A stretch of DNA of 64,000 nucleotides from a virus. The notes beneath the pieces were generated by a model. That model had not been told where the DNA came from and did no database searches. It saw only the letters and a program-made list of their open reading frames with translations. The translations under genes and the position numbers were made by a program. The DNA lies in IMG/VR virus record IMGVR_UViG_3300008017_000012; one strand, given 5' to 3'. Each line of letters begins with the position of its first letter. The stretch's first letter is position 1. Positions 1,750 to 38,265 of the stretch are shown here, one piece after another.

Positions 1750-2232
1750 ATGTTATCTCAAGAAATATTAGAAGCTCTTAATGATCAAGCACAACATGAA
1801 AAAACAAATTCTTATATATATAGGAATTTTGCAGGTATTGCTGATTATCAATCACTATTAGGAACAACAAAATGGTTTATGAAACAAAGTAAAGAAGAAG
1901 CAAGCCATTTTGACCTTGTTGTTAATTATATTCAAAACCAAGGTCATATACCAAAATTATTATCTATCCCTGAACAAGATAATACAAATATTACTCTTTA
2001 TGATATGTTTGTTAGAAGTTTAGCAACTGAAATAGAAACTCTTGAAAAACTCAAAAAAATATGTTCACTTTGTAAATTAGAAAATGATGATCAAACTTAT
2101 AAATTAATACTTGATATGGTATATGAACAAATTGAAGAAGTGAAAACAGTTAGTGATATTTTAAATAGAATTAAACAAGCAGGTACTGGTTTAGGATTTA
2201 TTATTATTGATCAAGAATTGGCTAATAGATAA
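1750..2232 (+). CDS. ftnA: Non-heme ferritin (FtnA-like)
   Basis: Ferroxidase ligands align with E. coli FtnA: QAQHE (E17), Y24, KEEASH (E49/E50/H53), TEIE (E94), EQIEE (Q127/E130), and a C-terminal G..IDQEL. Confidence 0.9.
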   Translation: MLSQEILEALNDQAQHEKTNSYIYRNFAGIADYQSLLGTTKWFMKQSKEEASHFDLVVNYIQNQGHIPKLLSIPEQDNTNITLYDMFVRSLATEIETLEKLKKICSLCKLENDDQTYKLILDMVYEQIEEVKTVSDILNRIKQAGTGLGFIIIDQELANR

Positions 2233-2293
2233 TAGATATTTAAAGGGGGTACCGGACAAGCCTCATTATATCATCTAGTACCGTATCTGTCAA
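2232..2293 (-). repeat. Dispersed conserved promoter element, copy 1 (inverted relative to copies 2 and 3)
   Basis: Reverse strand reads TTGACA(2293-2288)-N17-TATAAT(2270-2265)-GAGGCTTGTCCGGTACCCCCTTTAAATATCTAT, near-identical to 36614-36683 and 38196-38265. Confidence 0.9.
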
Positions 2294-2317
2294 CCTCTTT
2301 CTAAGAAAGAAAAATGA

Positions 2318-2488
2318 ATGAATATTAAAAAAATATGTATTAAAATCTTATTAACACTACCTGCAATTGGTTTAGGAATTTTAGCTTTACTTATTCAATT
2401 ATTTTTTTCTATAACTGAATGGCTAAGAACATTTGTTTTATTTCAACCAATTATAGATTTGTGGTTTCCAAATAATTTAAAGGAATAG
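2318..2488 (+). CDS. Small membrane protein, 56 aa (not in the ORF track)
   Basis: Manual translation MNIKKICIKILLTLPAIGLGILALLIQLFFSITEWLR...; hydrophobic, stops 2 nt before the holin-like gene. Confidence 0.45.
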   Translation: MNIKKICIKILLTLPAIGLGILALLIQLFFSITEWLRTFVLFQPIIDLWFPNNLKE

Positions 2489-2490
2489 AT

Positions 2491-3066
2491 ATGAAGTGGT
2501 CAGATGTAGGTGATTGGGTAAAAGAAAATGCTGGGGCTGGCGTTGGATTAGTTGGCTCTCTTTTAACTGGTAATATTCCTGGTGCTATTGCAGCAGGGGT
2601 TTCAATGGTGTCTAGTGCTACTGGTAGTGATGATCCTGATAAAGCTTTATCTATTTTACAATCTAACCCTGAAGCTACTTTGAAACTTAAAGAATTATAT
2701 TTCAAAAATGAAGATTCCATTAGAAGTCATTTAGAACAAATGACTAAACTTGATCTTGAAGATAAACAAAAAGAACATGAACAAACTCAATTGACTATTC
2801 GTAATGCCGATAATGCTACTGATGAATATGTCAGAAGAACTAGACCTAAAATGGCTAAACAAAGTTTTTGGCTTGGCTCTCTTTATTGCTGTATTATGGA
2901 ATTAGGAAATTCAATTTCTTTCTTTGATTCTAATAATATTGAACACCAATTATTATCAAGTGGCGCTAATTGGGAAATTGCTACTCTTTTATTTTCAGGT
3001 GCTTTTGCTTATATGGGGTTACGTACTATGGATAAAATTAAAGGCAAAAATTCTATAATTAAATAA
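2491..3066 (+). CDS. Holin-like protein (3TM, GTA-holin type)
   Basis: Gly/Ala-rich N-terminal helix GAGVGLVGSLLTGNIPGAIAAGV, a coiled middle, RRTRP followed by hydrophobic segments, and a GAFAYMGLRTMDK end typical of this family. Confidence 0.65.
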   Translation: MKWSDVGDWVKENAGAGVGLVGSLLTGNIPGAIAAGVSMVSSATGSDDPDKALSILQSNPEATLKLKELYFKNEDSIRSHLEQMTKLDLEDKQKEHEQTQLTIRNADNATDEYVRRTRPKMAKQSFWLGSLYCCIMELGNSISFFDSNNIEHQLLSSGANWEIATLLFSGAFAYMGLRTMDKIKGKNSIIK

Positions 3067-3067
3067 C

Positions 3068-3075
3068 TATAAATA
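3068..3075 (+). promoter_or_regulatory. T4-type late promoter TATAAATA
   Basis: Exact motif upstream of the AAGGAG SD of the fibre gene at 3106. Confidence 0.65.
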
Positions 3076-3105
3076 AATATAAACTACTTAAGGAGACTAT
3101 TTACT

Positions 3106-5055
3106 ATGGCAATTGGCGATTTAACAGTTGTTGGATCTAATCTAACAGGGATTTCATGTTCAGGAAATTATCATGGTGAATTTACTGGGGATCTTGTAAA
3201 ACCAGTAAAAAATGAGCAAGTTCTTCTTGCTGATCTTAAAAATATTATAGGTAATCCAGGTGATACTGTATATATGACAGGAAGAACCTCACCAGGTGAT
3301 GGAGATGATGGTACTTTCTACTGGGATTCTAGTGACTTATCAGCTAAAGTAGCAACTGATACTCTTAGTGATATATATGTTGCTCCGAATATAGATTTGA
3401 CCGGGGCAAGCGGAGGGTGGGTGCGGCAGCTCATTAGTGCCACTCAAGCCGAAATGGAAGCAGGCACCGAAACCGCGCTTCGTTCTATGTCGCCACTACT
3501 GGTTCGGCAGGCAATAGATGCTCAGATGCCAAACAATATTATTGGTGCACCTGGGGAAGCAGGTTTTGGTGTTGGCATTGCCCCTGCCTCAGCTGTCCCA
3601 GAAGGAATGACGTATCTTGGGACGTCATTCCTTCTGGGAGATAATTACGGCAATTACCAGTTTTCTGATGGTTCCATCATGTGCTACGTACCGAAGTTTT
3701 ACTACCGCATAGCTCATGTCAGTAATCCAACCTATGCAACCTACGGGGTTAACTCGTGTGATGTTAAAGGGGTCAACACCTTTGCAACTACCGCAGATGC
3801 CAACGCCGCAGGCTATGCGCTGCATCGTGCTTTTATTGACGGCGGTACCGAAAAAGATGGATTTTTTGTTGATAAATATATGTGTAGTAAAAACGCCCTT
3901 GGCAGTGGTTTTGTTGCCAGTTCCCTTCAAAACGGTCTGCCAATTTCAACCAACAATACCCATAACCCAATTGCCGCCCTGACCGCCTGCGCGGACAACT
4001 ATAATTACGAAGCGATTAATGCTGCTCATGCCCGTGACGGTATAGATGGGGCAATTAATCCTGATTCGATTTTTTTCTGCAACTCTCGTCAAATTCATGG
4101 AGCACTGGCGCTGCTCTCCCTCGCTCACGGCCAAAAATCCTTAAATACCACAAACTGCGCCTGGTATGATGCTACCTACAATTTCCCCAAAGGTTGTAAC
4201 AATAACGCCCTGGGGGATGCAAACGATGCCACTATCGCTTACACCAGTGATGGTTTTGACAACTGCGGGAAGACCGGCAGTGGTACCCCGTTTGCAAAAA
4301 CCACACACAATGGCCAAGCGTGCGGCGTAGCTGATTTGAACGGTTTGATGTACGAGGTCAATATTGGTCTAACCTGTATCGCCACTACCAAAACAATAAC
4401 CGCAATAACGCAAGCCAACCCCTGTCAGGTTACTGTTGTCGGTCACGGACTGACAACAGGAGACTACGTACTAATTGGTAGCCTTGCTGGCATGACGGAA
4501 CTTAGAAATAAAATCTATAAGGTCACGGTTGTTGATGCGAATAACTTTACCTTGTATGGTGTTAACTCAACGGCCTTTTCTGCCTATATCGGCGGGGGTA
4601 CTGCCATTATAGGTACATTTTATCGGGCAGCTGATAGTACAGAGATGCGCAATTTTACCGCAGGCAACACACTGGCAACAGATCATTGGGGGGTCACAGG
4701 AGTCACCGCAATGATGACGCCGTTTGTTCCTGCGTTTGCGGCAACCTACCCTAGCAACAATTCTACTCAGCGTTTTGGTTCATCGGCGGAGCAGGTTATT
4801 GCCAGTAATGTTAGCGGAGACGCCTGGGAAATGGCGGGGCTGGGATTTCCGCGGCAGACGGCAATCTCCCAAGTAGGCACAAATTTGTTTGGTGTAGATT
4901 ATTACTATCAATATGTGCGTCATGATCTGTGCCCGGCTTCGTCCCACTTTTGGCAAAATTTGACGCTGGCCGGGATCTGGTCGTTCGACTTTACCTCTTA
5001 CCGGACGACTTCGAGCAACATTTTCGGGTTCCGTACCGCCTGTTACCCTGCTTAA
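3106..5055 (+). CDS. Chimeric tail fibre / receptor-binding protein with FCCH-like domain and Mtd-like C-type lectin tip
   Basis: Tailspike-type N-terminus (TGRTSPGDGDDGTFYWD...GGWVR), ATQAEMEAGT linker, E1-FCCH-like ITAITQANPCQVT...HGLTTGD, and FGE/CLec hallmarks ADLNGLMYE and AGIW...GFRTACYP. Confidence 0.8.
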   Translation: MAIGDLTVVGSNLTGISCSGNYHGEFTGDLVKPVKNEQVLLADLKNIIGNPGDTVYMTGRTSPGDGDDGTFYWDSSDLSAKVATDTLSDIYVAPNIDLTGASGGWVRQLISATQAEMEAGTETALRSMSPLLVRQAIDAQMPNNIIGAPGEAGFGVGIAPASAVPEGMTYLGTSFLLGDNYGNYQFSDGSIMCYVPKFYYRIAHVSNPTYATYGVNSCDVKGVNTFATTADANAAGYALHRAFIDGGTEKDGFFVDKYMCSKNALGSGFVASSLQNGLPISTNNTHNPIAALTACADNYNYEAINAAHARDGIDGAINPDSIFFCNSRQIHGALALLSLAHGQKSLNTTNCAWYDATYNFPKGCNNNALGDANDATIAYTSDGFDNCGKTGSGTPFAKTTHNGQACGVADLNGLMYEVNIGLTCIATTKTITAITQANPCQVTVVGHGLTTGDYVLIGSLAGMTELRNKIYKVTVVDANNFTLYGVNSTAFSAYIGGGTAIIGTFYRAADSTEMRNFTAGNTLATDHWGVTGVTAMMTPFVPAFAATYPSNNSTQRFGSSAEQVIASNVSGDAWEMAGLGFPRQTAISQVGTNLFGVDYYYQYVRHDLCPASSHFWQNLTLAGIWSFDFTSYRTTSSNIFGFRTACYPA

Positions 5056-5076
5056 GCAACAATAAGGAGTTTCACT

Positions 5077-5502
5077 ATGCAAATCTACAGCTATCAAAAA
5101 ATATCCGATGATTACACCACCTACACCGCACAAGGCAGTGAAGAAAGTCCGGTGCAAGAGTTGTGTACAATTGACGGGACAACCTATTTTTACGGCCCAG
5201 ACGAGCTGCCTCCGCAGCCTGAGAAGATTACAGTTGTGCCGGTAGTATTGACCGAGGAGTTACGTACTGCGATTAAAGCCGCTAGCCCAATGTGTCAATT
5301 GTCGTATCGCCGTACAAAAGCCCGCATCCGCGAGCGATACAGCCAAGAAGATGAAACATTTCTCGCCCGTATCGGCGTCGGCCAAGCTCTTGGGGTCTAT
5401 CAAATGTCACCAGGAGAAATGCAAGAGCTGGCGGATTACCAAGCGTTTGTTGAAGAACAACGTGCCTGGGGTCGGGAACAACGGGAGCTGATAGGATTAT
5501 GA
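5077..5502 (+). CDS. Putative tail-fibre chaperone/accessory protein
   Basis: Directly follows the fibre gene with SD TAAGGAG; 141 aa; inside the GC-rich cassette. Confidence 0.5.
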   Translation: MQIYSYQKISDDYTTYTAQGSEESPVQELCTIDGTTYFYGPDELPPQPEKITVVPVVLTEELRTAIKAASPMCQLSYRRTKARIRERYSQEDETFLARIGVGQALGVYQMSPGEMQELADYQAFVEEQRAWGREQRELIGL

Positions 5503-5519
5503 GCGACAAGTATAATCTG

Positions 5520-5618
5520 ATGAGATACTTAATAATAGCATTGATATTATTGTTGCCCTGTTCGGTCTCCGCCGACAATTACTATTATCTCTTTGGTGTA
5601 AAAGTCACGCTTTGGTAA
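5520..5618 (+). pseudogene. Internally deleted remnant of a secreted beta-barrel-type gene (signal peptide fused to C-terminal strand)
   Basis: Translates MRYLIIALILLLPCSVSADNYYYLFGVKVTLW; the last 13 aa resemble the C-terminus of ORF 62069-62545 (NYYLIGVKIQAW). An in-frame ATG also occurs at 5499. Confidence 0.5.
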
Positions 5619-5630
5619 AGGAGCCACACA

Positions 5631-6053
5631 ATGATCTTATATATTAGATTGGCCGGTATCACCCCGGAAACTTACACCGATGAATTAGCACGTACCGCCT
5701 TGCACAGTGCCGCGCTGGAGATTCAAGGGCTGAATGCCGCAGTGCCGGGCCTTGCGTTTGACCCAATTAAATCAACCCCAGCGACATGGGATGAGGATGG
5801 TAACACAGACCTGCTCACCAGGCCGATTGAGACCTTTTTAGGCAACTGCAACACGCCGCCGAACGCATGGGGAGATGTAGGCGTACAGATTGACAATTAC
5901 AACTGGCTGGAACTACCGCCGGGAATCGCGCCCAAAACGTTTTCTATTACCCTTGGTCGACCGATCCGTCAAACCGTTGACGCTGAGGGCAACCCGGTAA
6001 CGGTGGAGGTTGGCATGATAGCCGGGGCGACGATTGAGCCGGAGACGTTATGA
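5631..6053 (+). CDS. Hypothetical protein, 140 aa
   Basis: SD AAGGAG, GC-rich cassette, ATGA overlap with the next gene. Confidence 0.6.
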   Translation: MILYIRLAGITPETYTDELARTALHSAALEIQGLNAAVPGLAFDPIKSTPATWDEDGNTDLLTRPIETFLGNCNTPPNAWGDVGVQIDNYNWLELPPGIAPKTFSITLGRPIRQTVDAEGNPVTVEVGMIAGATIEPETL

Positions 6054-6265
6054 GTGACAAGTACAGCCAAAAATGGGTAACGCTCTTTTCCAAAGCGGAT
6101 AAGTGGGCCATTACCTTAGGGCAGACAACCTATTACAGCTGCAACGAATTTGCAATCACACCAAGCTGGAGACGGCACGAAGAGGAGCATAAACGCCAGT
6201 GGCGTGAGCACGGTTGGCTCTTTGCGTTGAAATACTTGTGGGAGTTGCGCAAGGGGTTGAAGTAG
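6050..6265 (+). CDS. Small protein with HExxH-like motif
   Basis: RRHEEEHKRQW motif; translationally coupled to the upstream ORF. Confidence 0.5.
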   Translation: MSDKYSQKWVTLFSKADKWAITLGQTTYYSCNEFAITPSWRRHEEEHKRQWREHGWLFALKYLWELRKGLK

Positions 6266-6350
6266 TTAAAAATATTTTTATAAATAAATATAAATAAGTA
6301 TGAAAAGCTATGAAATAAATTTTTATAAATACTATTAGGAGAAACAAAAA

Positions 6351-6509
6351 ATGAAAGTAGTTAGAGTGACAAATGAAGAGTTTGAATTAGAAGATGGGTC
6401 TATTCATCCTATCTTGTTTGAACTTGATTATACTCCTACCGTAGAAGAATTTCAACTTATATACGATGAATCAGTAAAACAACTGGAATCTATACTACAT
6501 GACAAATGA
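6351..6509 (+). CDS. Small acidic ORF, 52 aa, overlapping the tnpA start (not in the track)
   Basis: MKVVRVTNEEFELEDGSIHPILFELDYTPTVEEFQLIYDESVKQLESILHDK; SD AGGAGA; 11-nt overlap with tnpA. Confidence 0.6.
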   Translation: MKVVRVTNEEFELEDGSIHPILFELDYTPTVEEFQLIYDESVKQLESILHDK

Positions 6510-7122
6510 AAAATTATATACATTATCTGATGTAGCCAAATTATTAAATGTTCATCAAGACACTTTAAGACTATGGGATAAATCTGGTAAATTGGTTTCT
6601 ATAAGAACTAAAGGTGGGCACAGACGATATAAAGAATCTGTTGTTCATGAAATGATGAATATTATCAAAGAGCCAGAAGTTATATCCAATGTAATTTGTA
6701 TTTACTGTAGAGTATCATCAAATGAACAGAAAACCAAAGGTGATTTAGAAAGACAGAAGCAACGTCTATATGAATACTGTATACAAAAGAAATACATAGT
6801 TGAATACATTTTTGAAGAAGTTGGTAGTGGGTTGAATGATAAAAGACCTAAACTACTCAAGATGATGGATTTAGCTAAAGAAAGAAAACTAACTAAAATA
6901 GTTATAGAGCATAAAGATAGATTGATTAGATTTAATAAAAATATACTAATCAAGTATTTTGAAAGTCATGGTGTTACCGTAGAATGGAGTCAAGAAACAT
7001 TAGAACTGTCATACCAAAATGAACTAGTAGAAGATATGCTTTCACTTATAGCCTCATTCAGTTCTAAACTTTATGGTAAACGTAGTGCTGAAAATAGAAA
7101 AATTAAAAAAAGAGAACTCTGA
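6499..7122 (+). CDS. tnpA: IS607 transposase (MerR HTH + serine recombinase)
   Basis: LSDVAKLLNVHQDTLRLWD...GGHRRY HTH; catalytic IYCRVSS; EVGSGLNDKRPKL; EHKDRLIRF; ELVEDMLSLIASFSSKLYGKRS. Confidence 0.95.
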   Translation: MTNEKLYTLSDVAKLLNVHQDTLRLWDKSGKLVSIRTKGGHRRYKESVVHEMMNIIKEPEVISNVICIYCRVSSNEQKTKGDLERQKQRLYEYCIQKKYIVEYIFEEVGSGLNDKRPKLLKMMDLAKERKLTKIVIEHKDRLIRFNKNILIKYFESHGVTVEWSQETLELSYQNELVEDMLSLIASFSSKLYGKRSAENRKIKKREL

Positions 7123-7283
7123 TGAATAAAAATACTCCACTAATAACACCGACTTTTAAAAAGAGTTATCCTATAATAGATATAGAACCTAAAATTATGA
7201 CAGATTGGGAATTTACTATTCGTAAGCTAAAACTATTAACATTGTGTTGTAGAGGTGAAGATGGATGGTGTAGATTAAAATGA
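7122..7283 (+). CDS. Small ORF, 53 aa, between tnpA and tnpB (not in the track)
   Basis: MNKNTPLITPTFKKSYPIIDIEPKIMTDWEFTIRKLKLLTLCCRGEDGWCRLK; TGATG overlap with tnpA and ATGA overlap with tnpB. Confidence 0.5.
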   Translation: MNKNTPLITPTFKKSYPIIDIEPKIMTDWEFTIRKLKLLTLCCRGEDGWCRLK

Positions 7284-8494
7284 TTAGAACAACAGAACAT
7301 TCATTAAAATATATTACTGACTACAAGAAACAAAAACTTGATATTTTGTTTGATGAATATCAACGTGTAGTCAACCAATATATTAATGTGTTCTGGAATC
7401 AAACATCATGGAAATCTAAAGCAACAGCAGATGAATATAAATTAGTAGATTCTTGGCTTATGGGTAAAGTGATGAAGTGTGCTTATGCTCAAGCTATACA
7501 AATGATTCGTTCAACCAAAGATAAACAAAAGAAATTAGTTTACAAACAATACAAAAGAGTTTATAGTAAAGCTAAACGTAAGAATAAAAATTGGGATATA
7601 GTAAATCAAACCTTTACGGTTTGGAGCAAAGATAAAACTTTCAGAGATAGAACTAAAATTCCTTTCTTCTCTGGAGATTCTATAGAACTCAATTCTGACT
7701 TATGTAAGATATATCAAGATGTCTCTATATCTCATTTTGATATGGTTGTTAGATTGGGTTCGATATGGGGAAATAGGCTTTCATTAGAGTTACCAATAAG
7801 AAAGCACAAACATTTCAATCAACTGTTTGCATCTGGTTTTGGTGTAAAAACGTCTTTGAGATTGAGTAGAAAGAACAACAAATATAGCATCAATCTCTAT
7901 ATGTCAAAAGACTTTGAACAAGTAAAAGATGAAGGGAATATTATAGGGATTGACGTTGGCATTAAAAAACTTATGTCGGTTAGTGATGGTACTTTTATTG
8001 GAACTGATATAGAATCAATTATTAGAAAGTATAAAAGAAGAAAGCAAAATAGCAAAAACAGTAAGAAAACATTAAAGCAAATAAAAGACTATATCGGGCA
8101 TTCTGTTAATCAACTCAACTTTACTGATACACAATGTATTGTTATGGAAGAGTTAAAGCCAAGTAATATGTTAGTCAAAGGTAAATCTAGTAAAGAGTTT
8201 AGAAAAATATTAAGTAAATGGAATCAAAACTTGTTAGTGGAAAGAATACAAAATAAATGTGAGCTTAACCGTGTTGAGCTTCAGTTTGTTTTACCACATC
8301 ATACAAGTCAGCAGTGTTCTCAATGTGGAGAAATCCATAAAGAGTCAAGAAAAGGCGAACTATATCAATGTGTTGGTTGTGGTTATACGATAGATGCAGA
8401 CTACAATGCTTCATTGAATATAGTTAATAAATTCTTGAATAAGGAATTTACCGTTCCTTCTAATACAAAAACTACCATTCCTAGATTTTCATAG
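7280..8494 (+). CDS. tnpB: TnpB RNA-guided endonuclease (IS607 type)
   Basis: RuvC-I GIDVGI, RuvC-II MEEL, Zn finger CSQCG...CVGCG, RuvC-III DADYNASLNI; all catalytic acids present. Confidence 0.93.
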   Translation: MIRTTEHSLKYITDYKKQKLDILFDEYQRVVNQYINVFWNQTSWKSKATADEYKLVDSWLMGKVMKCAYAQAIQMIRSTKDKQKKLVYKQYKRVYSKAKRKNKNWDIVNQTFTVWSKDKTFRDRTKIPFFSGDSIELNSDLCKIYQDVSISHFDMVVRLGSIWGNRLSLELPIRKHKHFNQLFASGFGVKTSLRLSRKNNKYSINLYMSKDFEQVKDEGNIIGIDVGIKKLMSVSDGTFIGTDIESIIRKYKRRKQNSKNSKKTLKQIKDYIGHSVNQLNFTDTQCIVMEELKPSNMLVKGKSSKEFRKILSKWNQNLLVERIQNKCELNRVELQFVLPHHTSQQCSQCGEIHKESRKGELYQCVGCGYTIDADYNASLNIVNKFLNKEFTVPSNTKTTIPRFS

Positions 8495-8528
8495 GTTTGG
8501 TTGAACGGTATTTTACTAATCAGAAATT
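8441..8528 (+). ncRNA. Putative 3' part of the TnpB omega/reRNA and its flanking guide
   Basis: Hairpin AAGGAA(8441-8446)/TTCCTT(8454-8459); alternative pairing of TACCGTTC(8449-8456) with GAACGGTA(8503-8510) at the element end. Confidence 0.45.
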
Positions 8529-8820
8529 AAATAGTATCAGATTTTGGTGAACCACTAACAATTGTTGCTATCATAGGGCCAATAACAGAATCCCCAACTC
8601 TACCAACACCTCTTCCTTCTATAGTAGAAACAGAGCTACCAGAAGCAACAACACCAGTATGGCCACAACTAAAAGTCACAATATCACCAACTCTGACCCC
8701 TGGTTTATCATCAATAAAAACAACATTAGAGCCACTTGATATAACACCAGTAACAGAAATAGGTTTATCATGTGCTCTACAAATACCAGTTGCAATATCA
8801 CCTACTCTTGCTAATTGCAT
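8527..8820 (-). CDS. PAAR-domain spike tip protein (gp5.4-like)
   Basis: LARVGD, GVRVGD...CGH and VGRVGD repeats; 97 aa. Confidence 0.88.
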   Translation of the reverse strand: MQLARVGDIATGICRAHDKPISVTGVISSGSNVVFIDDKPGVRVGDIVTFSCGHTGVVASGSSVSTIEGRGVGRVGDSVIGPMIATIVSGSPKSDTI

Positions 8821-8832
8821 ATTAAAATTTCA

Positions 8833-9537
8833 TTAAAGCAAAGGAATTTGAGGGAAGAGAATATTAAAATCATTATTCATACCTCTATCAATAATAAATT
8901 CTTCTAATTTCATATCATCAAGCAAATAATCTTTTGTAGATTTAAAAATATCTTTAGTTTTAGATGAGCGAAAAAGTTGAAAGAGGACTTTATCAGAAAT
9001 TGCATTTTGAACAGAATCGGGTAAATTTTTCCAAGAATCTAATTCAGCAATAGCATGAGCAGGTATATCAATTTCGATAATATTAAATTCAGGTGTTTTT
9101 TCTATAGTAACAGAATAATTAGGTGGATCAAAAGGAGCAGGGCCACCAGATGCATCTTCATTAATTAATTCTGTAGCAATAAAAGGTAATACAGTAATTA
9201 TCTCATTAGAAGTTGGTAATTCATATATTGGTGTAAGATTTAATAAAGAATTATTAGTACAAATATCAACTGGATCAATATTATTTTCGACAAAAATTGT
9301 TGAATATTTTAGTGAACAATAAGAATATAAAGTTGTTAATTGTGATTTAATAACATCAGAAGTTATTAAATTATTATATGAGATTGCATTTATCCAATCT
9401 TCAATATTTGTTCCTGTTTCATCAGAGACAAGATAGCCTTGAGATTCTAAATCAGCAATGAAAGAAGATTTTTCAACATTCATTGCTGAAATAATATCAG
9501 ATTTCCAAATTACTAAATTTTCTTCAGTTAAAATCAT
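8833..9537 (-). CDS. Hypothetical protein, 234 aa
   Basis: Long acidic ORF co-oriented with PAAR. Confidence 0.55.
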   Translation of the reverse strand: MILTEENLVIWKSDIISAMNVEKSSFIADLESQGYLVSDETGTNIEDWINAISYNNLITSDVIKSQLTTLYSYCSLKYSTIFVENNIDPVDICTNNSLLNLTPIYELPTSNEIITVLPFIATELINEDASGGPAPFDPPNYSVTIEKTPEFNIIEIDIPAHAIAELDSWKNLPDSVQNAISDKVLFQLFRSSKTKDIFKSTKDYLLDDMKLEEFIIDRGMNNDFNILFPQIPLL

Positions 9538-9916: not shown

Positions 9917-9926
9917 TTAAATACTC

Positions 9927-16306: not shown

Positions 16307-16353
16307 AAATTATTCCTTTAAATTATTTCTGCTTTTTAGTTAGTTTTCTATTT

Positions 16354-16382
16354 ATCTTATCTTATAGTTTTTCTTTTGTCAA
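16354..16382 (-). promoter_or_regulatory. Sigma70-type promoter of the topoisomerase genes
   Basis: TTGACA-N17-TAAGAT. Confidence 0.55.
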
Positions 16383-16386
16383 ATAA

Positions 16387-16414
16387 AAAATCCTCTAAAA
16401 TATTAGAGGATTTT
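16387..16414. terminator. Intrinsic terminator hairpin
   Basis: AAAATCCTCTAA-AATA-TTAGAGGATTTT perfect stem with A/T tails. Confidence 0.75.
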
Positions 16415-16442
16415 AATTTTTTAAAAATTTAAAATAAATAAT

Positions 16443-17181: not shown

Positions 17182-17871
17182 TTATTCAACTTCAATAATT
17201 TCAAAATTCTTTAAATGATAAAATTTATTTTCACATAAAATAACTTCAACAGTACAATTTTCAAAAACTAAATTTTTTATATTATAACCATATTGTTTTT
17301 CTTCAGCCAAGAGTTCATTTTTACAATGTTCAGTCATTAAGTAATCAATATACTTAATAAACTTAGATGAATAATCATCATAATATGATTCAAGGATTAT
17401 TTTTTTTGTTTTACCAGAATCATTTTTTTGAATATCTTGTTTGCCGTGGGGTAGCATGGTAATAATAACAAATTGATTACCTTTTACTTCTCCTGATTTA
17501 TCTGGTCGATAATCAATAGCAATAGCTTGATTCAAACTTTTTGAGTAAAAAAGATATTCCCCTGGTGAAATATCTTGTTCAAGAGAACTATCAATAATAT
17601 TAGAAAAGAATTTTTTTAATTGTGTAGCAGATAGTTTATTTCTTTCTTCAAATCGTTCATAACCATGTGTTGTTGTAATAAACCATTTCCCTTTATATTC
17701 AAAAATATAATTAAGGGATTTACCTCCTAATTGTTTCCATATAGGTGTATTAATAACTTTTAATCTCGGTTTATTATATACTTCTGGTTCTTTTTTTGTT
17801 TGAACACGTTCAGCAGAACGCATTAAAGATGCTAAACTTGCTTCTTTAATAAATTCTTTAAATGTTTTCAT
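17182..17871 (-). CDS. Putative capsid internal protein (CTS-like N-terminus) with possible RNase-like domain
   Basis: MKTFKEFIKEA resembles the T4 internal-protein targeting signal MKT(F/Y)(K/Q)EF..E; internal THGYERFEER...VIITMLP. Confidence 0.55.
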   Translation of the reverse strand: MKTFKEFIKEASLASLMRSAERVQTKKEPEVYNKPRLKVINTPIWKQLGGKSLNYIFEYKGKWFITTTHGYERFEERNKLSATQLKKFFSNIIDSSLEQDISPGEYLFYSKSLNQAIAIDYRPDKSGEVKGNQFVIITMLPHGKQDIQKNDSGKTKKIILESYYDDYSSKFIKYIDYLMTEHCKNELLAEEKQYGYNIKNLVFENCTVEVILCENKFYHLKNFEIIEVE

Positions 17872-18563: not shown

Positions 18564-18587
18564 TATTTATATAAAAAAATATTTATA
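18564..18587 (-). promoter_or_regulatory. Two tandem T4-type late promoters
   Basis: TATTTATA on + at 18564-18571 and 18580-18587, upstream of the internal-protein cluster. Confidence 0.65.
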
Positions 18588-29967: not shown

Positions 29968-29982
29968 GTATTATATTAGTTA

Positions 29983-31158: not shown

Positions 31159-31189
31159 AATTTCTCCTCATTAGTTGTTTAAATTTCTC

Positions 31190-32197
31190 TTACAATTTAT
31201 CTGTCTGAGAGAGCCAAAAGATTCTTGCTTTTTTAGAAAGTTCACTTGTAACATCTTTAGCACAAAGATTATTTTTAGTTAATGTATCTAGTTCTTCTGA
31301 AATAATATCTGAAACAATCCATTTCAAGAATTCCCCAGTATTTTTTCTATGAATCTCTTTTCCTTGTTCTTTTAAAATTGAAAGACCTTGTTCAAGACGT
31401 GATTCAGTCACAGTCATTTCAACAAATTCTTGAATATTATTTACTTTTTCAACATCAACAGAAGCTAAAGTTTTTACTTTTGATGAGGAATGTTTCATAC
31501 CTTTAACTTTAAACCAATATTTTGGTGAAAGATCATATTTATTTTTCCATACAATCCCTTCTCCTGTTCCCAAAATACCAAAATATTTTCCAACAGGACA
31601 TTCATTTTCAACTTGATTTGTTAATTCTTTTAATTTATTTTGTGCTAATTCAGGGTGTTCAAAGTCAATTTCCATTTCATAAGATTCAAATTGAAGAATA
31701 GAATATATTTTATTTTTATTTAAAATACTTAATTCATCCTCTGTAAAAACAGGTAGTAACCAATCATCATCTTTTTTAAAATTAAATATAACAAACATTT
31801 TTGGTAATTTTTCGATAGCAACCCCTTTTTGAATACCATTACCACAAAATTCCCCAAAATATACAAATGTAGAACATATATGTTTATTAAAGACATTTAA
31901 TAAAACTTGTTTTGCTTCAATAGATATACCAGACATGAAAGCTGCAAACCCAGCATTATCTTTCAATACTGTAATTTCATTATTTCTAGATTGATATATA
32001 ATATCTTTAGATTTACTATATACAACTGAAGAATTAGTACCATGTAATTTTGGTGTTCCTGTAAAAGTAAGTTTGGGGTATAATGTGTCATGGTTAAAAA
32101 TTGATTGCCCTTCTTCATTAAATCCTTTGAAATCATTTTGTTTCCTAACAAATGATACAACATCACGAAACTGACCAATTTTTGGAAATTTAATCAT
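31190..32197 (-). CDS. RNA ligase (Rnl2-like nucleotidyltransferase)
   Basis: PKLHGTN adenylation motif, FGEFCG, GEGIVW, FKVKG. Confidence 0.8.
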   Translation of the reverse strand: MIKFPKIGQFRDVVSFVRKQNDFKGFNEEGQSIFNHDTLYPKLTFTGTPKLHGTNSSVVYSKSKDIIYQSRNNEITVLKDNAGFAAFMSGISIEAKQVLLNVFNKHICSTFVYFGEFCGNGIQKGVAIEKLPKMFVIFNFKKDDDWLLPVFTEDELSILNKNKIYSILQFESYEMEIDFEHPELAQNKLKELTNQVENECPVGKYFGILGTGEGIVWKNKYDLSPKYWFKVKGMKHSSSKVKTLASVDVEKVNNIQEFVEMTVTESRLEQGLSILKEQGKEIHRKNTGEFLKWIVSDIISEELDTLTKNNLCAKDVTSELSKKARIFWLSQTDKL

Positions 32198-32223
32198 ATA
32201 AAATCCTTTTTATTAATTTTTTT

Positions 32224-32484
32224 CTACTTTATCACAGAATTTTTGATTTGTCTAGATTTTTTTTTATTTTCAGATAAGAAATCTTTAAAGCGAAGAATCA
32301 GTGAATTTGTTTCATTAATTTCTAATTTATTCTTGAGAATTGTGGTCAAGTATATAGAAAATCTAATATCGGATTTTTTCATACCTTGTTCAGAGAGTTG
32401 GTTGATAATTTCTAAACATTGTTTAGCGACAAAATGTTCATTTTTACCAGATTTTTTAGCGAATTTTTTTATTAAAGTTTTCAT
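32224..32484 (-). CDS. Hypothetical protein, 86 aa
   Basis: Late promoter (TATTTATA on + at 32490-32497) just upstream. Confidence 0.5.
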   Translation of the reverse strand: MKTLIKKFAKKSGKNEHFVAKQCLEIINQLSEQGMKKSDIRFSIYLTTILKNKLEINETNSLILRFKDFLSENKKKSRQIKNSVIK

Positions 32485-32499
32485 AAATGTATTTATATT

Positions 32500-32970
32500 T
32501 TACTGTAAAGTAATAGATTTTTTAAAATCTTTACAATTGACACAAGTACCACTTTCTAAAATATTTTTTTTAAAGACAATATTATTACATAATGGGCATT
32601 TGACTTTACCTTGTTGGTTTAAATAATCTTCATATTTAGCGTGTACAGCTTCATCACCATATTTTAAAGAAGATGAATTTTCATCCCAAAAGCTATCTTC
32701 TAAAATAACAAGATAATTTGAGGCAATAATATCATTTATATAAGTTGTTATAAGAGCCGATTCTTGACAAGTTGTACCTAGATAAAAAGATAAATAAAAT
32801 AATTCTTTATCATTAATATAAAATAATGAGAATTTTTCAGAAATAATACAAAAAATATTATTATCAGGATCAAATGTTTTTTTAATATAATAATTTTTCA
32901 TATAAGATTGGATAATATTAATAATATCATCAAAGATTTTATTAATGGGATCTTTTTTTAAATTAATCAT
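32500..32970 (-). CDS. Hypothetical protein with C-terminal zinc finger
   Basis: CPLC...CVNC. Confidence 0.55.
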   Translation of the reverse strand: MINLKKDPINKIFDDIINIIQSYMKNYYIKKTFDPDNNIFCIISEKFSLFYINDKELFYLSFYLGTTCQESALITTYINDIIASNYLVILEDSFWDENSSSLKYGDEAVHAKYEDYLNQQGKVKCPLCNNIVFKKNILESGTCVNCKDFKKSITLQ

Positions 32971-32987
32971 TTTAATAAAACTCTTTC

Positions 32988-34703
32988 TTAAAAAATAACT
33001 TCCTTAATAGAAGAGAATCCTTTTACAATACTTGTCTCGAAAATTTTATCAAGATATTCCTGTTCTAGTTCACCACTATTATCAATCATAATTACACTTT
33101 TATTATATTGATCTTTAAAATCTTTTAATACTTTCAACAAACATTCACGGCCATTTGAATCTAATCCACTACTAATTTCATCAAGTATTAAGGTATTAAT
33201 ATTAGATTTTTTATTTTTATATATTGAAAAATTAATAAAGGAAAAAAGTATTGCTAGATTTATTCTACTTTTTTGCCCTTCTGAAAAAGAAAAGTAAGAG
33301 AAATTCTCTTTATGTCTTGTCTTAACAATCTCATTAAACTCTGTATCAAAATTAAAAATTATATCTGAATTAAATTTAATAAGATAAGAATTAAGTAAGT
33401 TATTTATTGCTGGTAAATATTTTTTGATTATAAACGCTTTTATTCCTTCTTCTGAATATAAATCTTTTAAAATTAAATAATGTTTTTTTAATTTCCCTGC
33501 TTCTATATATTTATTTTTTAATTCTTTAACTGAATTGTTATAATTTTTTAATTTAGTTTTATCAATTTTAATTTCTTTAGCTTGTTCGGATTTAATTATT
33601 TTATTTATTTCTTTAATTCTATTTTCATTTCTATACATTGAATCTTTAATAAATCGTTCATTAGCAATAATTTTATCTATTTTTTCAAGATCTTTTTCTT
33701 TATTAGATAAATAAGAATTGATCTCTTTTATTTCGACTTCAATCAAGTCAATTTTTGATTTCATAGAATCAATATTTTCTGAAACTAAAAGATCTTTAAT
33801 TTTAGGACAACCAGAACAAGTATTGTTTAGGAATTTAATTTTATTTATTGCAAGTTTCATATCAGCTTTAACTGATAATTGACTTTCTTGAATATTTTTT
33901 AACTCATTTTTCTTTATTAAAATTTCTTTTAATTTAGATTCTTTTATAATTTTATTCTTATTAATTATACTTATTCCCATAACATATTTGTTATTTTCTT
34001 CATCAATAGAAAGTAATTCCAATTTAAGTTTATCAATTTTATCTTTTGCTTCTAGTTCTAATTCTTTTTTAATTTTAGTTAAATTATCAATATTAATAAT
34101 TTCTTGTTCAATGAGTAATTCCGTATTCTCAATATCTTTTTGCATAGTTTTTAAATCAAAATCAATAAGTTTTATTTTTTCTTTGATGTTTTTTAACATA
34201 ATAGAAAAAAGTTCAACATCAAAAATATTTTCAACAACTGATCTTTTTTCAGCTTTAGACAGAGTCATAAAAGATAGATTTTTAGTTAAAGACTTTATAC
34301 CAATCTGATTAAAAAGATTCTCATTGATTCCTAGAATAGTTTCTTCTAAAATTTCTTGGTAACCTCTTTTAGATGAAGAAACAGGAACTATTTCACCATT
34401 TTTGAAAATTTTAAAAATATCTGGTTTTAACCCACGTTCAATTTTGAAAGAATCCTCCCCTTTTGTGAAATGAAGTTCAGCATAGAGTTCTTTTTTATTT
34501 TTTGAGTTGATGAGTTGTGATACTTTTATCTTTCTATAAGATTTACCAAAAAGTAAAAAATAAAATACATCTGTTGGAAATGTTGATTTACCAGATCCAT
34601 TTACTCCTATTATTCTATGTACACCTTTTTCAAAATTAAATGTTGTTAATGAATTACCATAACTTAGAAAATTCTTTGCTTTAATCATTTTAAAATTAAT
34701 CAT
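32988..34703 (-). CDS. Recombination endonuclease ATPase subunit (gp46, Rad50/SbcC-like)
   Basis: GVNGSGKST, zinc hook CSGC, FSEGQK, LILDE. Confidence 0.93.
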   Translation of the reverse strand: MINFKMIKAKNFLSYGNSLTTFNFEKGVHRIIGVNGSGKSTFPTDVFYFLLFGKSYRKIKVSQLINSKNKKELYAELHFTKGEDSFKIERGLKPDIFKIFKNGEIVPVSSSKRGYQEILEETILGINENLFNQIGIKSLTKNLSFMTLSKAEKRSVVENIFDVELFSIMLKNIKEKIKLIDFDLKTMQKDIENTELLIEQEIINIDNLTKIKKELELEAKDKIDKLKLELLSIDEENNKYVMGISIINKNKIIKESKLKEILIKKNELKNIQESQLSVKADMKLAINKIKFLNNTCSGCPKIKDLLVSENIDSMKSKIDLIEVEIKEINSYLSNKEKDLEKIDKIIANERFIKDSMYRNENRIKEINKIIKSEQAKEIKIDKTKLKNYNNSVKELKNKYIEAGKLKKHYLILKDLYSEEGIKAFIIKKYLPAINNLLNSYLIKFNSDIIFNFDTEFNEIVKTRHKENFSYFSFSEGQKSRINLAILFSFINFSIYKNKKSNINTLILDEISSGLDSNGRECLLKVLKDFKDQYNKSVIMIDNSGELEQEYLDKIFETSIVKGFSSIKEVIF

Positions 34704-35841
34704 TAGATAATCCTAAACTTTCATCTTGTGCTAACTGATACATTTCTGATGATAGAGACATTAATAAATTCTTTTCTATATTTTCTTCAAATGTCATTCC
34801 ATCAATAAATGTTCTTATCAAGTCTATTGTATTTGTATCTGTTTCTAATGTTTCTTCAAATTCTGTTAAATTAAAATTTTCTACTACTTGTTCTGTATCA
34901 ATAATTTCTATCTTATAATCATTTTTTGAAACTTCACATAAACTATTATAGAATATATCAAAATTAAATAGATTTTTACACTTTTTAACGTATATCTTTG
35001 AATAGTTAGTACTTACTATGTCTTTTGCTTTATCCTTCGTTATTTCGCTTGTTTTGTTCGTTTCAAGCCCACTTACAGTTATTACATCGTCATCATAATA
35101 TAATTTAATAAATTTAGGTGTAATAATATTTTTAATATAGTCTAATTCATAATTATCCTTTAAAACATAAAACCCCTTTTCTTCATCAAAATCATTATAA
35201 GTTAATTGGTATTGTGTTCCTGTATAAATGATATTATCTTGTCTGGATTTAATATGATAATGCCCACTAAACACTAATTTAATGTCTTTAAAAATATTAG
35301 CATCAAACCCACCTTTTGACATGATATTTTTCATCATAGGAAAATTATTCATTTCAAAATGTCCTGCAATTATATCACACTTTTTTGGAACAGAAAAAGT
35401 TTTTTGGTCAACAATCCAAGGAATCATAGCAATTGAATATTTTCCAATTTTAATAGTTTTTGCTCTATCATATACAAAAATATTTTTGAACTCATTAGTA
35501 TTTTCTGATAAAAAATTATGGGAAATCCTATCACGAAAATAACAATCATGATTACCAACTAAAATATGTAGTTTTATGTTGTTTTCATCAAACCATTTAA
35601 AAAATCTTGTTTTTAATTCTTGAAGAATCCAAAGATCAATATTATTTCTATTATGTACAAAATCCCCTAAATGAATTACTTCTTTAATACCATTCTCAAT
35701 AAGATAAGGAAAAAATTGGTCATCAAAAAAAGATAGTTGGGTTTCAAATATTGATTTAGAACTATTATTTGTTCCAAAATGGGAATCTGATAAAAATACT
35801 ATATTATTGTTCATTTTGAACTTCCCTTTTTTTCTTGACAA
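34696..35841 (-). CDS. Recombination nuclease subunit (gp47, Mre11/SbcD-like)
   Basis: SDSHFG, LGDFVH, VGNHD, GHFE, SGHYH; the true start is probably MNNNIV. Confidence 0.92.
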   Translation of the reverse strand: MSRKKGKFKMNNNIVFLSDSHFGTNNSSKSIFETQLSFFDDQFFPYLIENGIKEVIHLGDFVHNRNNIDLWILQELKTRFFKWFDENNIKLHILVGNHDCYFRDRISHNFLSENTNEFKNIFVYDRAKTIKIGKYSIAMIPWIVDQKTFSVPKKCDIIAGHFEMNNFPMMKNIMSKGGFDANIFKDIKLVFSGHYHIKSRQDNIIYTGTQYQLTYNDFDEEKGFYVLKDNYELDYIKNIITPKFIKLYYDDDVITVSGLETNKTSEITKDKAKDIVSTNYSKIYVKKCKNLFNFDIFYNSLCEVSKNDYKIEIIDTEQVVENFNLTEFEETLETDTNTIDLIRTFIDGMTFEENIEKNLLMSLSSEMYQLAQDESLGLSND

Positions 35842-35863
35842 AAATATAAATAATTGTTATAGC
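35835..35863 (+). promoter_or_regulatory. Sigma70-type promoter for the small ORF at 35901
   Basis: TTGACA-N17-TATAGC with TGn extension. Confidence 0.5.
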
Positions 35864-35900
35864 TATTTTTATAAAAAATTACATCTGAAAGAGATATATT

Positions 35901-36050
35901 ATGAAAAAAGAAAACAATATGCAAAAAACTATTAAAAAGTTATCAAGACAAGAAATTGGCCCTATTCCTTATAAAAGAATAGAAAAGACTAAAAAAGATA
36001 AATTAAAAAATAGACAACAGAAACATAAAAAAATTGATTATGAAGATTAA
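35901..36050 (+). CDS. Small basic protein, 49 aa, opposite strand (not in the track)
   Basis: MKKENNMQKTIKKLSRQEIGPIPYKRIEKTKKDKLKNRQQKHKKIDYED; stop overlaps the gp55 stop. Confidence 0.5.
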   Translation: MKKENNMQKTIKKLSRQEIGPIPYKRIEKTKKDKLKNRQQKHKKIDYED

Positions 36051-36526
36051 TCATCAACAGATTCATCAATAAAATTTGGGTCATGGTCATCATACCATAA
36101 TTGTATATTAGTATAATCAATATCACAATTTACATCAGAAACTTCACCATTTCTTAGTTCTGCTTGTTCTTTCTCTTTTTTCAGAATCATTCTAAATGAA
36201 TTTTCAATACATTTAGAATAATAACCATAAGCATTATCAGATTTTTCAGGATTAAATTTAGCTAAATATCTAAAACAATTCAATGTTGCTTCAGCTTTCA
36301 TTTCGTCGAGATAAGTATAACCTCTGAAATTATATCGTTTAGCATAATTAGATACTAAAAGAAGGATACTTTCAGTAACAAACTCTGGTACATCAGGCCA
36401 CTCTGAACGTTTTTTACCTTTTGTCAAAAGTACCCATTCACTTATTTCTTTAGTAAATCTTTTATTATCAATATAATCCCTATCACCTTTTTTCCTTCTT
36501 CTTTTTCTTTTTGGTTCTTCTACCAT
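36047..36526 (-). CDS. Late-transcription sigma factor (gp55)
   Basis: YIDNKRF, NFRGYTYLDEM, KFNPEKSDNAYGYYS...SF...LKKEK; next to gp47/gp46. Confidence 0.92.
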   Translation of the reverse strand: MVEEPKRKRRRKKGDRDYIDNKRFTKEISEWVLLTKGKKRSEWPDVPEFVTESILLLVSNYAKRYNFRGYTYLDEMKAEATLNCFRYLAKFNPEKSDNAYGYYSKCIENSFRMILKKEKEQAELRNGEVSDVNCDIDYTNIQLWYDDHDPNFIDESVDD

Positions 36527-36560
36527 AATTTCCTTCTCCTTATAATATATTATTTAAAAA

Positions 36561-36589
36561 ATTATAGCATATAAGATAAATAATGTCAA
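36561..36589 (-). promoter_or_regulatory. Consensus sigma70 promoter of gp55
   Basis: TTGACA-N17-TATAAT, perfect. Confidence 0.8.
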
Positions 36590-36613
36590 TTTTTTATAAT
36601 GGATTTTTTTTAC

Positions 36614-36683
36614 TTGACAGATCCGGTACTAGATGATATAATGAGGCTTGTCCGGTACCCCTTTGAATATCTATATTATAAGA
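36614..36683 (+). repeat. Dispersed conserved promoter element, copy 2
   Basis: TTGACA-GATCCGGTACTAGATGA-TATAAT-GAGGCTTGTCCGGTACCCCTTTGAATATCTATATTATAAGA. Confidence 0.92.
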
Positions 36684-36691
36684 CAAAAAAA

Positions 36692-38179
36692 TTAGAGTTT
36701 AAATTTCATTGTTTTGTAATTCCAATCTTGTTCATTATAATAAGTCAATCTTTCTTTAAAATGTTTCATTGCATGATTTTTATATGTAATTTTTCTTTCT
36801 TTATTTGAAAAAGAGGTATCATCAATTATATCATATAATTTAGCAAATTCTTTATTATCTGATAGACGTAACATTCTACCTATTGATTGAAGCACTTTAA
36901 CTTTACTTTTATATGAAGAAGCAAAAATGATATTATGTATATTAGGTGCATTCATTCCTGTTGATGTTGTTCCATACGTTGCTAATAAAATAATATCATT
37001 TCTTTCTGAAATCATTTTTCTATATTTTTCTCTTTCTTTTACGTTAACATCACCATCAATATATAAAAGTGTTTTATTTTGTAATTTTTTTTCAAATAGA
37101 TCTTTTAATATATAACCATGAGTTTCTTTTTTCGTAAAAAGGATAAGAGTATTACCTTCAGTTTTTTGAGCTAATTTTAAAATAAATTCATTTCTATTAT
37201 TAAATTTATTAATCAAGGTACTTTCTTTTTGATAATCCTTTTTCCCATTAAAATAAAAATCTAATTTTGTTTTATTGTCATATTGAAGAATTAAATTATA
37301 AATTTTCATTTGAGAAATAAAGCCATCTTCTTGAAGTGATTTATAAGAAGCAAATTTTTTAATAGGGCCAATAGATCCAACAATAGAAAACCAATCAGCA
37401 CTTGAAGAATCTGGGTATGTTCCTGACATACCAAAACGATATTTAGCATTAATACAATTTTTAGAAATTACACTTATTGATTTAGCACTTGCTCCATGTG
37501 CTTCATCAATTAATAAACAGCCAAATTGTTTAAATAAATCTTTATTTTTATATATTGACTGCCAACAAGCAATTATAACTTGTCTTTCAAAAACTTTTCT
37601 TTGCCCTGAATATAATTTATGACATTTATATTCTACATCCCAACCATAATTTTCAAAATCTGAATAAATTTGTTCAACCAATCCTATATTAGGTACAATT
37701 AATAATGTTTGTAAATTTTGTGTTTCCATAAATCTACAAATGATATATGCAACTAAAGATTTACCTCCTGAGGTTGATATATGAATATTAATATGTTTTT
37801 TACAACAAGCTTGATAAGCTGCTTCAAATTGATAATCACGACATTCAAATGGTAATTTTAAATATTTTATAAATTTTATAAATTCATCTCGTGATATTTT
37901 ATTTTCTTGTTCAAAATGTTTTTCTACTTGATAATTACCAATAGAAGCAAATTCATATACTTTTTCTAAAAGTCCTATAGGCAAAGAATTATCAATAGAA
38001 TTAAAAAACTTTATTTTTCCATCCCATATTTTTTCTTTATACAATGGAGTAAATTGATAGTTAGTTGCATATATTGAAAAATAATTTTTAATTTCTCTTA
38101 AAATTATATCAGATGCTTCAATAAGAAGTGTTGATTCATTTTTCTTATATATTTTAATTACTTTCATAGAAATATTCAT
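36692..38179 (-). CDS. uvsW: SF2 DNA helicase
   Basis: STSGGKS, LIDEAH, MSGT, QSIGRMLR. Confidence 0.93.
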   Translation of the reverse strand: MNISMKVIKIYKKNESTLLIEASDIILREIKNYFSIYATNYQFTPLYKEKIWDGKIKFFNSIDNSLPIGLLEKVYEFASIGNYQVEKHFEQENKISRDEFIKFIKYLKLPFECRDYQFEAAYQACCKKHINIHISTSGGKSLVAYIICRFMETQNLQTLLIVPNIGLVEQIYSDFENYGWDVEYKCHKLYSGQRKVFERQVIIACWQSIYKNKDLFKQFGCLLIDEAHGASAKSISVISKNCINAKYRFGMSGTYPDSSSADWFSIVGSIGPIKKFASYKSLQEDGFISQMKIYNLILQYDNKTKLDFYFNGKKDYQKESTLINKFNNRNEFILKLAQKTEGNTLILFTKKETHGYILKDLFEKKLQNKTLLYIDGDVNVKEREKYRKMISERNDIILLATYGTTSTGMNAPNIHNIIFASSYKSKVKVLQSIGRMLRLSDNKEFAKLYDIIDDTSFSNKERKITYKNHAMKHFKERLTYYNEQDWNYKTMKFKL

Positions 38180-38195
38180 CCTAAGAAAAAAAAGC

Positions 38196-38265
38196 TTGAC
38201 AGATACGGTTCTAGATGATATAATGAGGCTTGTCCGGTACCCCTTTGAATATCTATATTATAAGA
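38196..38265 (+). repeat. Dispersed conserved promoter element, copy 3
   Basis: Identical to copy 2 over 70 bp except two spacer substitutions. Confidence 0.92.

Follow-up and report, generated by a model that had tools for sequence, protein, structure and literature searches.

The viral record IMGVR_UViG_3300008017_000012 in IMG/VR raises a simple question: why should a phage carry several near-identical copies of one perfect sigma70-type promoter, each with the same transcribed sequence attached, and why should some of these copies point into the ends of genes? We address it for a stretch of 64,000 nucleotides of this record (the window), which is the reverse complement of IMG/VR contig G000 (86,073 bp, GC 26.7%, estimated to be 48% complete). 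A first-pass annotation of the window had described three copies of this promoter-plus-leader unit, hereafter the cassette, and on re-reading the sequence their number, coordinates and strands were all borne out. Our favoured explanation, to which we assign a probability of roughly 0.5 as a whole statement and a higher one for its promoter part, is that the cassette is a strong early-promoter module that has been dispersed and homogenised by homologous recombination, and that it would exert early antisense interference at late genes.

Copies of the cassette

A degenerate pattern of 48 nt, from TTGACA through to GGTACCCC, fits the window without any mismatch at 2246-2293(-), 36614-36661(+) and 38196-38243(+), and 100 dinucleotide-preserving shuffles gave 0 matches, for a chance expectation of 0. 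The GC-rich 19-nt core of the cassette, GAGGCTTGTCCGGTACCCC, likewise occurs exactly three times in the window. At its full extent, copy 1 covers 2222-2303(-), with its core at 2232-2293 and its TTGACA at 2288-2293; copy 2 covers 36613-36688(+); and copy 3, which has an A8GC tract upstream, covers 38186-38270(+). Beyond the window, contig G000 holds a fourth copy, at G000:C1:70205-70270 (= L004:1479-1545), about 7.0 kb before window position 1 and on the minus strand in window orientation, and a fifth is present in a 54-kb sister contig, G002 (G002:34896-34980). The fifth copy was found in three IMG/VR contigs that are mutually 99.96% identical and thus represent one fragment of a sister phage. 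It had been foreseen that all further copies might turn out to be plain promoters in front of sense genes; the fourth copy is antisense and the fifth is sense.

When a profile of the five copies was searched with nhmmer against 140 kb of phage DNA (G000 and G002 together), the members scored 81-96 bits (80.8 bits for copy 1, 86.4 for copy 2 and 94.1 for copy 3), while the next best match reached 6 bits; no partial or decayed copies were detected in this DNA, and given the gap in scores we regard the family as a sharp one without decayed relics. Identity among the copies is 90-100% over 66-85 bp and reaches ~40 nt downstream of the -10 hexamer, and a stretch of 77 nt is 100% identical between copy 2 and the sister-contig copy. 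An assembly artefact as the cause of the duplication, the other objection that had been anticipated, is ruled out by independent Logan assemblies of four DNA runs from aquifer and hot-spring samples, which may include the source sample. In these, contigs break at the cassette, and relative to the unique 1,576-nt uvsW piece that separates copies 2 and 3, the cassette pieces have a depth 1.5-2.9 times as high (for instance, 65-99.8 vs 37.8 in X1, and 15.3-29.6 vs 10.3 in X19).

Exact-pattern scans for the GC-rich core in genome contigs gave chance matches only, among them a TusA-like coding motif conserved in Hungatella and Spirochaetes, and the same was true of metagenome contigs. Scans of viral contigs with three different sub-patterns of the core returned, besides chance matches, the sister contig only. 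These pattern scans thus revealed no host copy and no diverged family members; a megablast search of INPHARED with positions 36000-39000 gave no match.

Promoter elements and transcribed leader

The cassette consists, in this order, of an A-tract (in three of the five copies), TTGACA, a 17-bp spacer, TGn, TATAAT and ~41 common transcribed bases. In an alignment of the five copies, TTGACA-N17-TGnTATAAT is invariant throughout; the spacer ends in TGA, and TGnTATAAT constitutes an extended -10. The A-tract, A(6-8)GC, starts ~10 nt upstream of TTGACA and is carried by copy 3, copy 4 and the sister copy. Two positions of the spacer vary, 10 (A/C) and 14 (A/T), and all four combinations are present. 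The transcribed part reads GAGGCTT(G/A)TCCGGTACCCC(C)TTT(G/A)AATATCTATATTA, followed by TAAGA(C/G)AAA in three copies. The leader of copy 4 carries one change, while copy 1 is the most diverged, with an extra C, one G>A exchange and a 1-nt deletion in the leader, plus an early divergence from the common sequence. Beyond the common leader the sequence becomes locus-specific, as the first-pass annotation had it and as the five-copy alignment bears out.

As a whole, the unit measures ~75-85 bp and has a GC-rich start followed by an AT-rich stretch. The core and the first 19 nt downstream of the promoter are each 68% GC, against 26.7% for the genome; the AT-richness that follows is not discriminating, since the whole genome is 73% AT.

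The earlier claim that other sigma70-type promoters of this phage share the hexamers only also holds, so that the cassette is a separate, near-identical class. Perfect TTGACA-N17-TATAAT sites occur five times in the 86-kb contig, namely in the four cassettes and in the promoter of gp55 (36561-36589(-)), which is divergent from copy 2 and has the hexamers alone in common with the cassette. The same is true of ~10 ordinary early-type promoters (CTTGACA-N17-TAnnnT) in intergenic gaps, all of which are sense to the next gene. Two further candidate features of the cassette were rejected. The ATG within TATAATG does not look like a coding start when read from the sequence: the frame stops after 8 codons in copy 1, it is not conserved, and no Shine-Dalgarno sequence precedes it. 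A tandem second promoter in the leader (TTGTCC-N18-TATATT, 9/12) does not stand out from background matches.

Shuffled sequences fold as well as the first 100 nt of each predicted transcript and as the reverse strands of the cassettes (z -0.96 to +1.82), and a search of the whole window with Rfam gave no family at gathering score. No intrinsic terminator was found within 2.3 kb downstream of copy 1, within the 1.5 kb from copy 2 up to copy 3, or within 3.6 kb downstream of copy 4, where a GC-rich gap of 731 nt and a 383-aa gene in the same orientation precede the first terminator. The absence of both a fold and a terminator argues that the product would be a long transcript and not a discrete small RNA. 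The 731-nt gap itself (L037:8762-9492), which is gene-free, GC-richer and co-oriented with copies 1 and 4, contains a TTGACA-N17-TATATT promoter of its own and is followed by the 383-aa gene (phrog_2319) and a strong bidirectional terminator.

Genomic context of the copies

This uncultured groundwater phage belongs among the T4-like myoviruses as a distant member, with 31-35% identity of its portal protein to the portals of cyanophages and of a Campylobacter phage. Among its genes are those for gp46/47-like nucleases, the late sigma factor gp55, UvsW, UvsY and a gp5-like hub, as well as for a terminase, major head protein, sheath and portal. A plus-strand late structural block extends from about -22.8 kb to 8.5 kb in window coordinates, and from there to 62.5 kb the genes are almost all on the minus strand. 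Three of the five copies are antisense and face the 3' ends of a ferritin gene, an internal-protein-like gene and uvsW; the ferritin and internal-protein-like genes are late genes, and the copies directed at them, 1 and 4, are located inside the late block with its terminase, capsid, sheath and portal genes. The two sense copies point toward uvsY and, in the sister contig, toward a SprT-like gene, each upstream of that gene's own promoter. The first-pass assignments for the window, with copy 1 antisense to ferritin (Pfam PF00210), copy 2 antisense to uvsW and copy 3 sense to uvsY, proved correct.

Copy 1 fills an 85-nt gap between two plus-strand late genes: the ferritin-like gene (1750-2232(+)), whose TAA stop at 2230-2232 is formed by TTA at the right end of the cassette, and a 56-aa open reading frame (ORF; 2318-2488(+)), which is divergent from copy 1, with 24 nt between its start codon and the -35 of that copy. 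Copy 4 fills a gap of 97 nt within an array of six genes, between two of its members; the array's products begin with MKTFKQFI(T/S/L)E or MKSFKSFINE. At both copies the cassette TTA (of ...CTATATTA) provides the stop codon of the convergent gene, and these two genes are unrelated. The MKTFKQFI(T/S/L)E start resembles the capsid-targeting sequence of T4 internal proteins; the same tag is also present at the start of a window gene (17182-17871) and of two sister-contig genes.

Copies 2 and 3 bracket the uvsW helicase gene (36692-38179(-)) and form direct repeats. Copy 2 is situated between the minus-strand genes gp55 and uvsW, back to back with the gp55 promoter, and the uvsW stop codon follows 9 nt beyond its common part. 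The -35 of copy 3 is 16 nt from the uvsW start codon on the opposite strand, and the copy lies ~100 nt before the start codon of uvsY (38365-38790(+)), with a TATAAATA motif in between. In distant T4-like relatives (UvsW 37% identical), uvsY, uvsW, gp55 and gp47 form a tight, co-oriented series; compared with these, uvsY is inverted here, and copy 3 is at the junction. Closer relatives of UvsW show 52-57% identity. The TATAAATA late-promoter motifs at this junction are divergent, at 38318-38325(+) toward uvsY and at 38339-38346(-) toward uvsW. The latter suggests that uvsW is expressed late, as it is in T4 (PMC3016281), and a late uvsW transcript from this motif would traverse copy 3 in reverse. 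The sister copy, finally, is in sense orientation among consecutive small ORFs of early type; an ordinary promoter comes next, ahead of the SprT-like gene.

Two regions of the window stand out by their composition. Positions 3107-7100 form a GC-rich island (41-47% GC) in the late block, including a 649-aa gene (3106-5055) and small ORFs with GC-rich upstream regions. Positions 62900-64000 contain 69-nt tandem repeats and then a 52% GC stretch that lies past the IMG/VR contig end and differs strongly from the 27% GC body; a chimeric join or a foreign fibre gene may account for it.

Probable sequence exchange between copies

Besides the cassette, G000 and the sister contig have in common one repeated-domain protein, an intein-like insert, a 124-nt segment comprising a late promoter and an N-terminus, and the capsid-targeting tag. 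The sister contig encodes core genes that are absent from G000 (gp43 polymerase, a Dda-like helicase, RnlA and PhoH) and none of G000's own; the two contigs also agree in GC content and in their extended late-promoter motif. Given the complementary core genes, equal GC content and common motif, the simplest and probable view is that the sister contig and G000 come from one genome, or from two closely related ones, without overlapping. The 100% cassette identity of the sister contig to copy 2 should for this reason not be taken as a sign that the cassette passed between unrelated phages.

Between two strains of the sister contig, 10 differences were counted over 26.7 kb, and one of them falls on position 14 of the cassette spacer (A vs T), that is, on the same site and with the same two bases that distinguish the paralogues in G000. 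The chance that a strain difference would fall on either of the variable spacer sites is ~7e-4. The flank similarities between copies are, moreover, mosaic in the five-copy alignment. The strain polymorphism at a paralogue-variable site and the mosaic flanks together point to gene conversion among the copies, which would explain the identity of the leader without a function of its own.

The shared 124-nt segment is 86% identical between window positions 3051-3174 and G002:36175-36296, and includes the extended late-promoter motif (TATAAATAAATATAAAC), a leader and the first 23 codons; it looks like a second, late-type repeated regulatory cassette. The extended motif TATAAATAAATATAAAC occurs again at 18564-18587(-) and 49418-49425(-). 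As for the shared insert, the 951-aa large terminase (L037:13427-16282 (-)) has terminase-profile matches at residues 6-232 and 777-893 only, while its residues 233-505 are 27.6% identical to residues 248-514, an insert, of the Dda-like helicase of the sister contig (L012:4904-6925 (-)); both are probably intein-like insertions.

Comparison with known systems

Mobile regulatory cassettes known as PeSLs (promoter-early stem-loops) have been described in T4-type phages (Arbiol et al. 2010, PMC2839356; Comeau et al. 2014, PMC4122927), and ectopic homologous recombination has been proposed to spread their copies in other T4-like phages (PMC2839356; PMC4122927). Our cassette resembles them in several respects: it consists of several near-identical, (near-)perfect sigma70 early promoters with AT-rich sequence upstream (here the A6-8 tract of three of the five copies), it occupies intergenic gaps of a T4-like genome, apparently beside accessory or rearranged genes, its copies may have been exchanged by homologous recombination, and two copies flank a gene, here uvsW, as direct repeats, which is the geometry proposed for mini-circle excision. 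It differs from PeSLs in that no stem-loop or terminator is found upstream of the promoter, nor any common sequence upstream of the A-tract, and in that the 3' end has no Shine-Dalgarno sequence or start codon, the sense copies ending ~100 nt before the ATG with a promoter in between. What it has in their place is a transcribed segment of 41 nt that is fixed and unstructured; three of the five copies are antisense to flanking genes, and copies 1 and 4 are in the late structural block, where PeSLs are reportedly rare. Since two defining features of PeSLs are absent, we do not file the cassette as one, even though it may in part work like one. Separately from the cassette family, PeSL-like pairs of a hairpin-plus-T-run terminator and a following early- or late-type promoter, in sense orientation to minus-strand genes, were seen at 16307-16442, 49670-49767, 55410-55531 and 46115-46355.

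With regard to the promoter itself, the early promoters of T4 have been called 'über' promoters; their combination of UP element, -35, TGn and -10 allows them to outcompete host promoters (Hinton 2010, PMC2988021). By sequence the cassette belongs with them: all four elements recognised by RNA polymerase are present and invariant, and T4 early promoters are likewise known for extra consensus beyond the hexamers (PMC2988021). In contrast to T4, identity among the copies here is 90-100% over 66-85 bp, up to ~40 nt past the -10, and while T4's promoters serve sense genes, most copies of the cassette do not. Host-polymerase promoters that transcribe against phage genes are also known from T4, where gene 32 has both sense and antisense transcription (Belin et al. 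1987, cited in PMC2988021); the difference is that here one repeated cassette gives an antisense promoter at several loci.

A proposed dispersed early-promoter module

Based on the above, we suggest that unmodified host sigma70 RNA polymerase would fire the cassette right after infection, guided by a UP-like A-tract, a consensus -35, the 17-bp spacer, TGn and a consensus -10, and would then read through ~41 nt of unstructured initial transcribed sequence. The copies would be kept near-identical, and were probably spread, via ectopic homologous recombination or gene conversion. In this scheme the sense copies would add early transcription to genes that have a promoter of their own (uvsY and the SprT-like gene of the sister contig), while the antisense copies, in the ferritin operon, the internal-protein array and at uvsW, would send long untranslated transcripts into late genes. 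The cassette thus probably makes early 'anti-late' transcripts, for which the classic anti-late RNA offers a comparison, and these might interfere with the late-gene transcripts by collision or by pairing. Antisense transcription of uvsW would fit the logic of T4, where this R-loop helicase must stay off until late. The apparent association of the cassette with junctions, copy 3 at the inverted uvsY and copy 4 within the capsid-tag gene array, is a further point in support of dispersal. We infer a silencing role for the antisense copies, which could also be a tolerated by-product of cassette spread.

Several considerations weigh against this explanation. Promoter activity and its timing are deduced from sequence alone, and the late class of uvsW is deduced from one TATAAATA motif, which by itself is not enriched genome-wide. 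If the promoter alone matters, 90-100% identity of the 41-nt leader has no evident reason; concerted evolution would explain it. The stem-loop and the Shine-Dalgarno/ATG end that define PeSLs are absent from the cassette, and the evidence base comprises five copies only.

Alternative explanations

An explanation that needs no function at all is a selfish or neutral repeat, in which a promoter segment was copied to new junctions by illegitimate or mini-circle recombination and the antisense copies are functionless and tolerated. All copies do appear to be inserted in intergenic gaps whatever their orientation, both sense copies are upstream of a gene's own promoter, the end of the cassette abuts or supplies stop codons, and the gene-conversion signal as well as the lack of decayed relics, which suggests recent spread, are in line with such a repeat. 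However, a head-on promoter of maximal strength that fires into late operons should be costly, and yet the antisense copies keep all recognition elements. There is also no mobility gene adjacent, and the copies have no terminal inverted repeats or target-site duplications in common, as a miniature inverted-repeat transposable element or an insertion sequence would; low-complexity A/T runs alone flank some of them. We regard a functionless repeat as unlikely, though not far-fetched. The position of copy 3 at the uvsW/uvsY junction, with copy 2 on the far side of uvsW, raises the different possibility that each cassette is a replication origin, at which the transcript from the promoter stays hybridised to a downstream element and primes the leading strand. 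The T4 origins oriF (uvsY) and oriG (34) are built in this way, from ~100 bp of promoter plus downstream element, and UvsW unwinds origin R-loops in T4 (Kreuzer and Brister 2010, PMC3016281). Orientation independent of the neighbouring genes, and a ~75-85 bp unit with a GC-rich start and then an AT-rich stretch, would suit an origin as well. On the other hand, the T4 origins use MotA-dependent middle promoters and an unwinding element that needs no specific sequence (PMC3016281), whereas the cassette has an early sigma70 promoter and a conserved downstream element, so that an origin model leaves the fixed leader unexplained. GC skew follows gene orientation only and gives no origin signal. The first ~19 transcribed bases are, in addition, 63% pyrimidine in the RNA. 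Pyrimidine-rich RNA forms the least stable type of RNA:DNA hybrid, and the leader would be expected to behave in the same way. R-loop priming at the cassettes is quite improbable in our view. We give only a slender chance to its most specific form, portable origin modules in which an early sigma70 promoter and a fixed leader form the priming R-loop and two copies bracket uvsW. If true, this would define a sequence-specified, multi-copy class of origins for T4-like phages, with no MotA found in the 140 kb; that search had no positive control, as AsiA (PF09010) and MotA (PF09114) gave no match in either contig and likewise none in control genomes, and the records are fragments, so that the result is uninformative.

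The constant part of the cassette could also serve a protein or an RNA. In the former case, the invariant TCCGGTACC at ~+2 to +10, together with a similar site within the spacer, would act as the operator through which a DNA-binding protein of the phage or the host shuts off all copies in common. The downstream site is invariant in five of five copies, and the GC-rich palindromes GGTACC and CCGG are conspicuous in a 27% GC genome. A direct repeat of TCCGGTAC, 29 bp apart and with one unit on each side of the -10, is found in copy 2 and one sister-contig strain, and solely with a C...A spacer; CGGTAC flanks the -10 on both sides in copies 1 and 2 and one sister-contig strain only. A two-site operator is weakened by variation of the upstream CGGTAC half-site between copies; the upstream site varies at 2 of 8 positions, no candidate regulator was found, and the direct-repeat geometry is unlike that of typical dimeric operators. 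We consider regulator control of this kind doubtful; it is compatible with an early-promoter module and does not exclude it. In the latter case, the cassette would be a portable small-RNA or guide module with a constant 5' scaffold and a locus-specific 3' antisense part, as the first-pass annotation put forward; it would possibly act with an Hfq-like protein or TnpB. The transcribed sequence is indeed constant and then variable, and the same phage has both an Hfq-like gene (49212-49394 (-), 60 aa, Pfam Hfq 28.6 bits vs a cut-off of 27) and, at the end of the late block, a TnpB-type gene (7280-8494 (+), Pfam Cas12f1-like_TNB 62.9 bits; OrfB_IS605 weak). Nevertheless, a structured scaffold with a defined 3' end, as in TnpB omega-RNA, CRISPR RNA or Hfq-dependent small RNA, was not found: the folds are not above shuffles, there is no Rfam match and no terminator. 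The region 3' of TnpB has no similarity to the cassette (with blastn and nhmmer, the cassette matches its own copies only in the contig), and the constant part has no complementarity to anything else in the 140 kb, where 9-12-nt k-mers of its GC-rich portion have no match or complement. Two of the five copies are sense, and a fully complementary cis-antisense RNA has no need of a scaffold. The guide or antisense-RNA scaffold was thus left without support and seems to us very improbable, and a link between the Hfq-like protein and the cassette is speculation. A TATAAATA motif is found just upstream of the Hfq-like gene, at 49418-49425.

Implications

The value of this reading is limited by the small number of copies, five, and by their origin in an uncultured phage. 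The cassette is short enough to be synthesised and tested in vitro without phage culture. If an early-promoter module with antisense activity is indeed what it represents, then one portable promoter of maximal strength would be used in two ways, for an early boost of a recombination gene and for early transcription against late genes, the antisense targets including uvsW and genes for proteins that are probably packaged in the capsid. It would extend the PeSL idea to a terminator-less form with an antisense role, and would make convergent transcription, as a means of temporal control in a lytic phage, accessible to a simple test.

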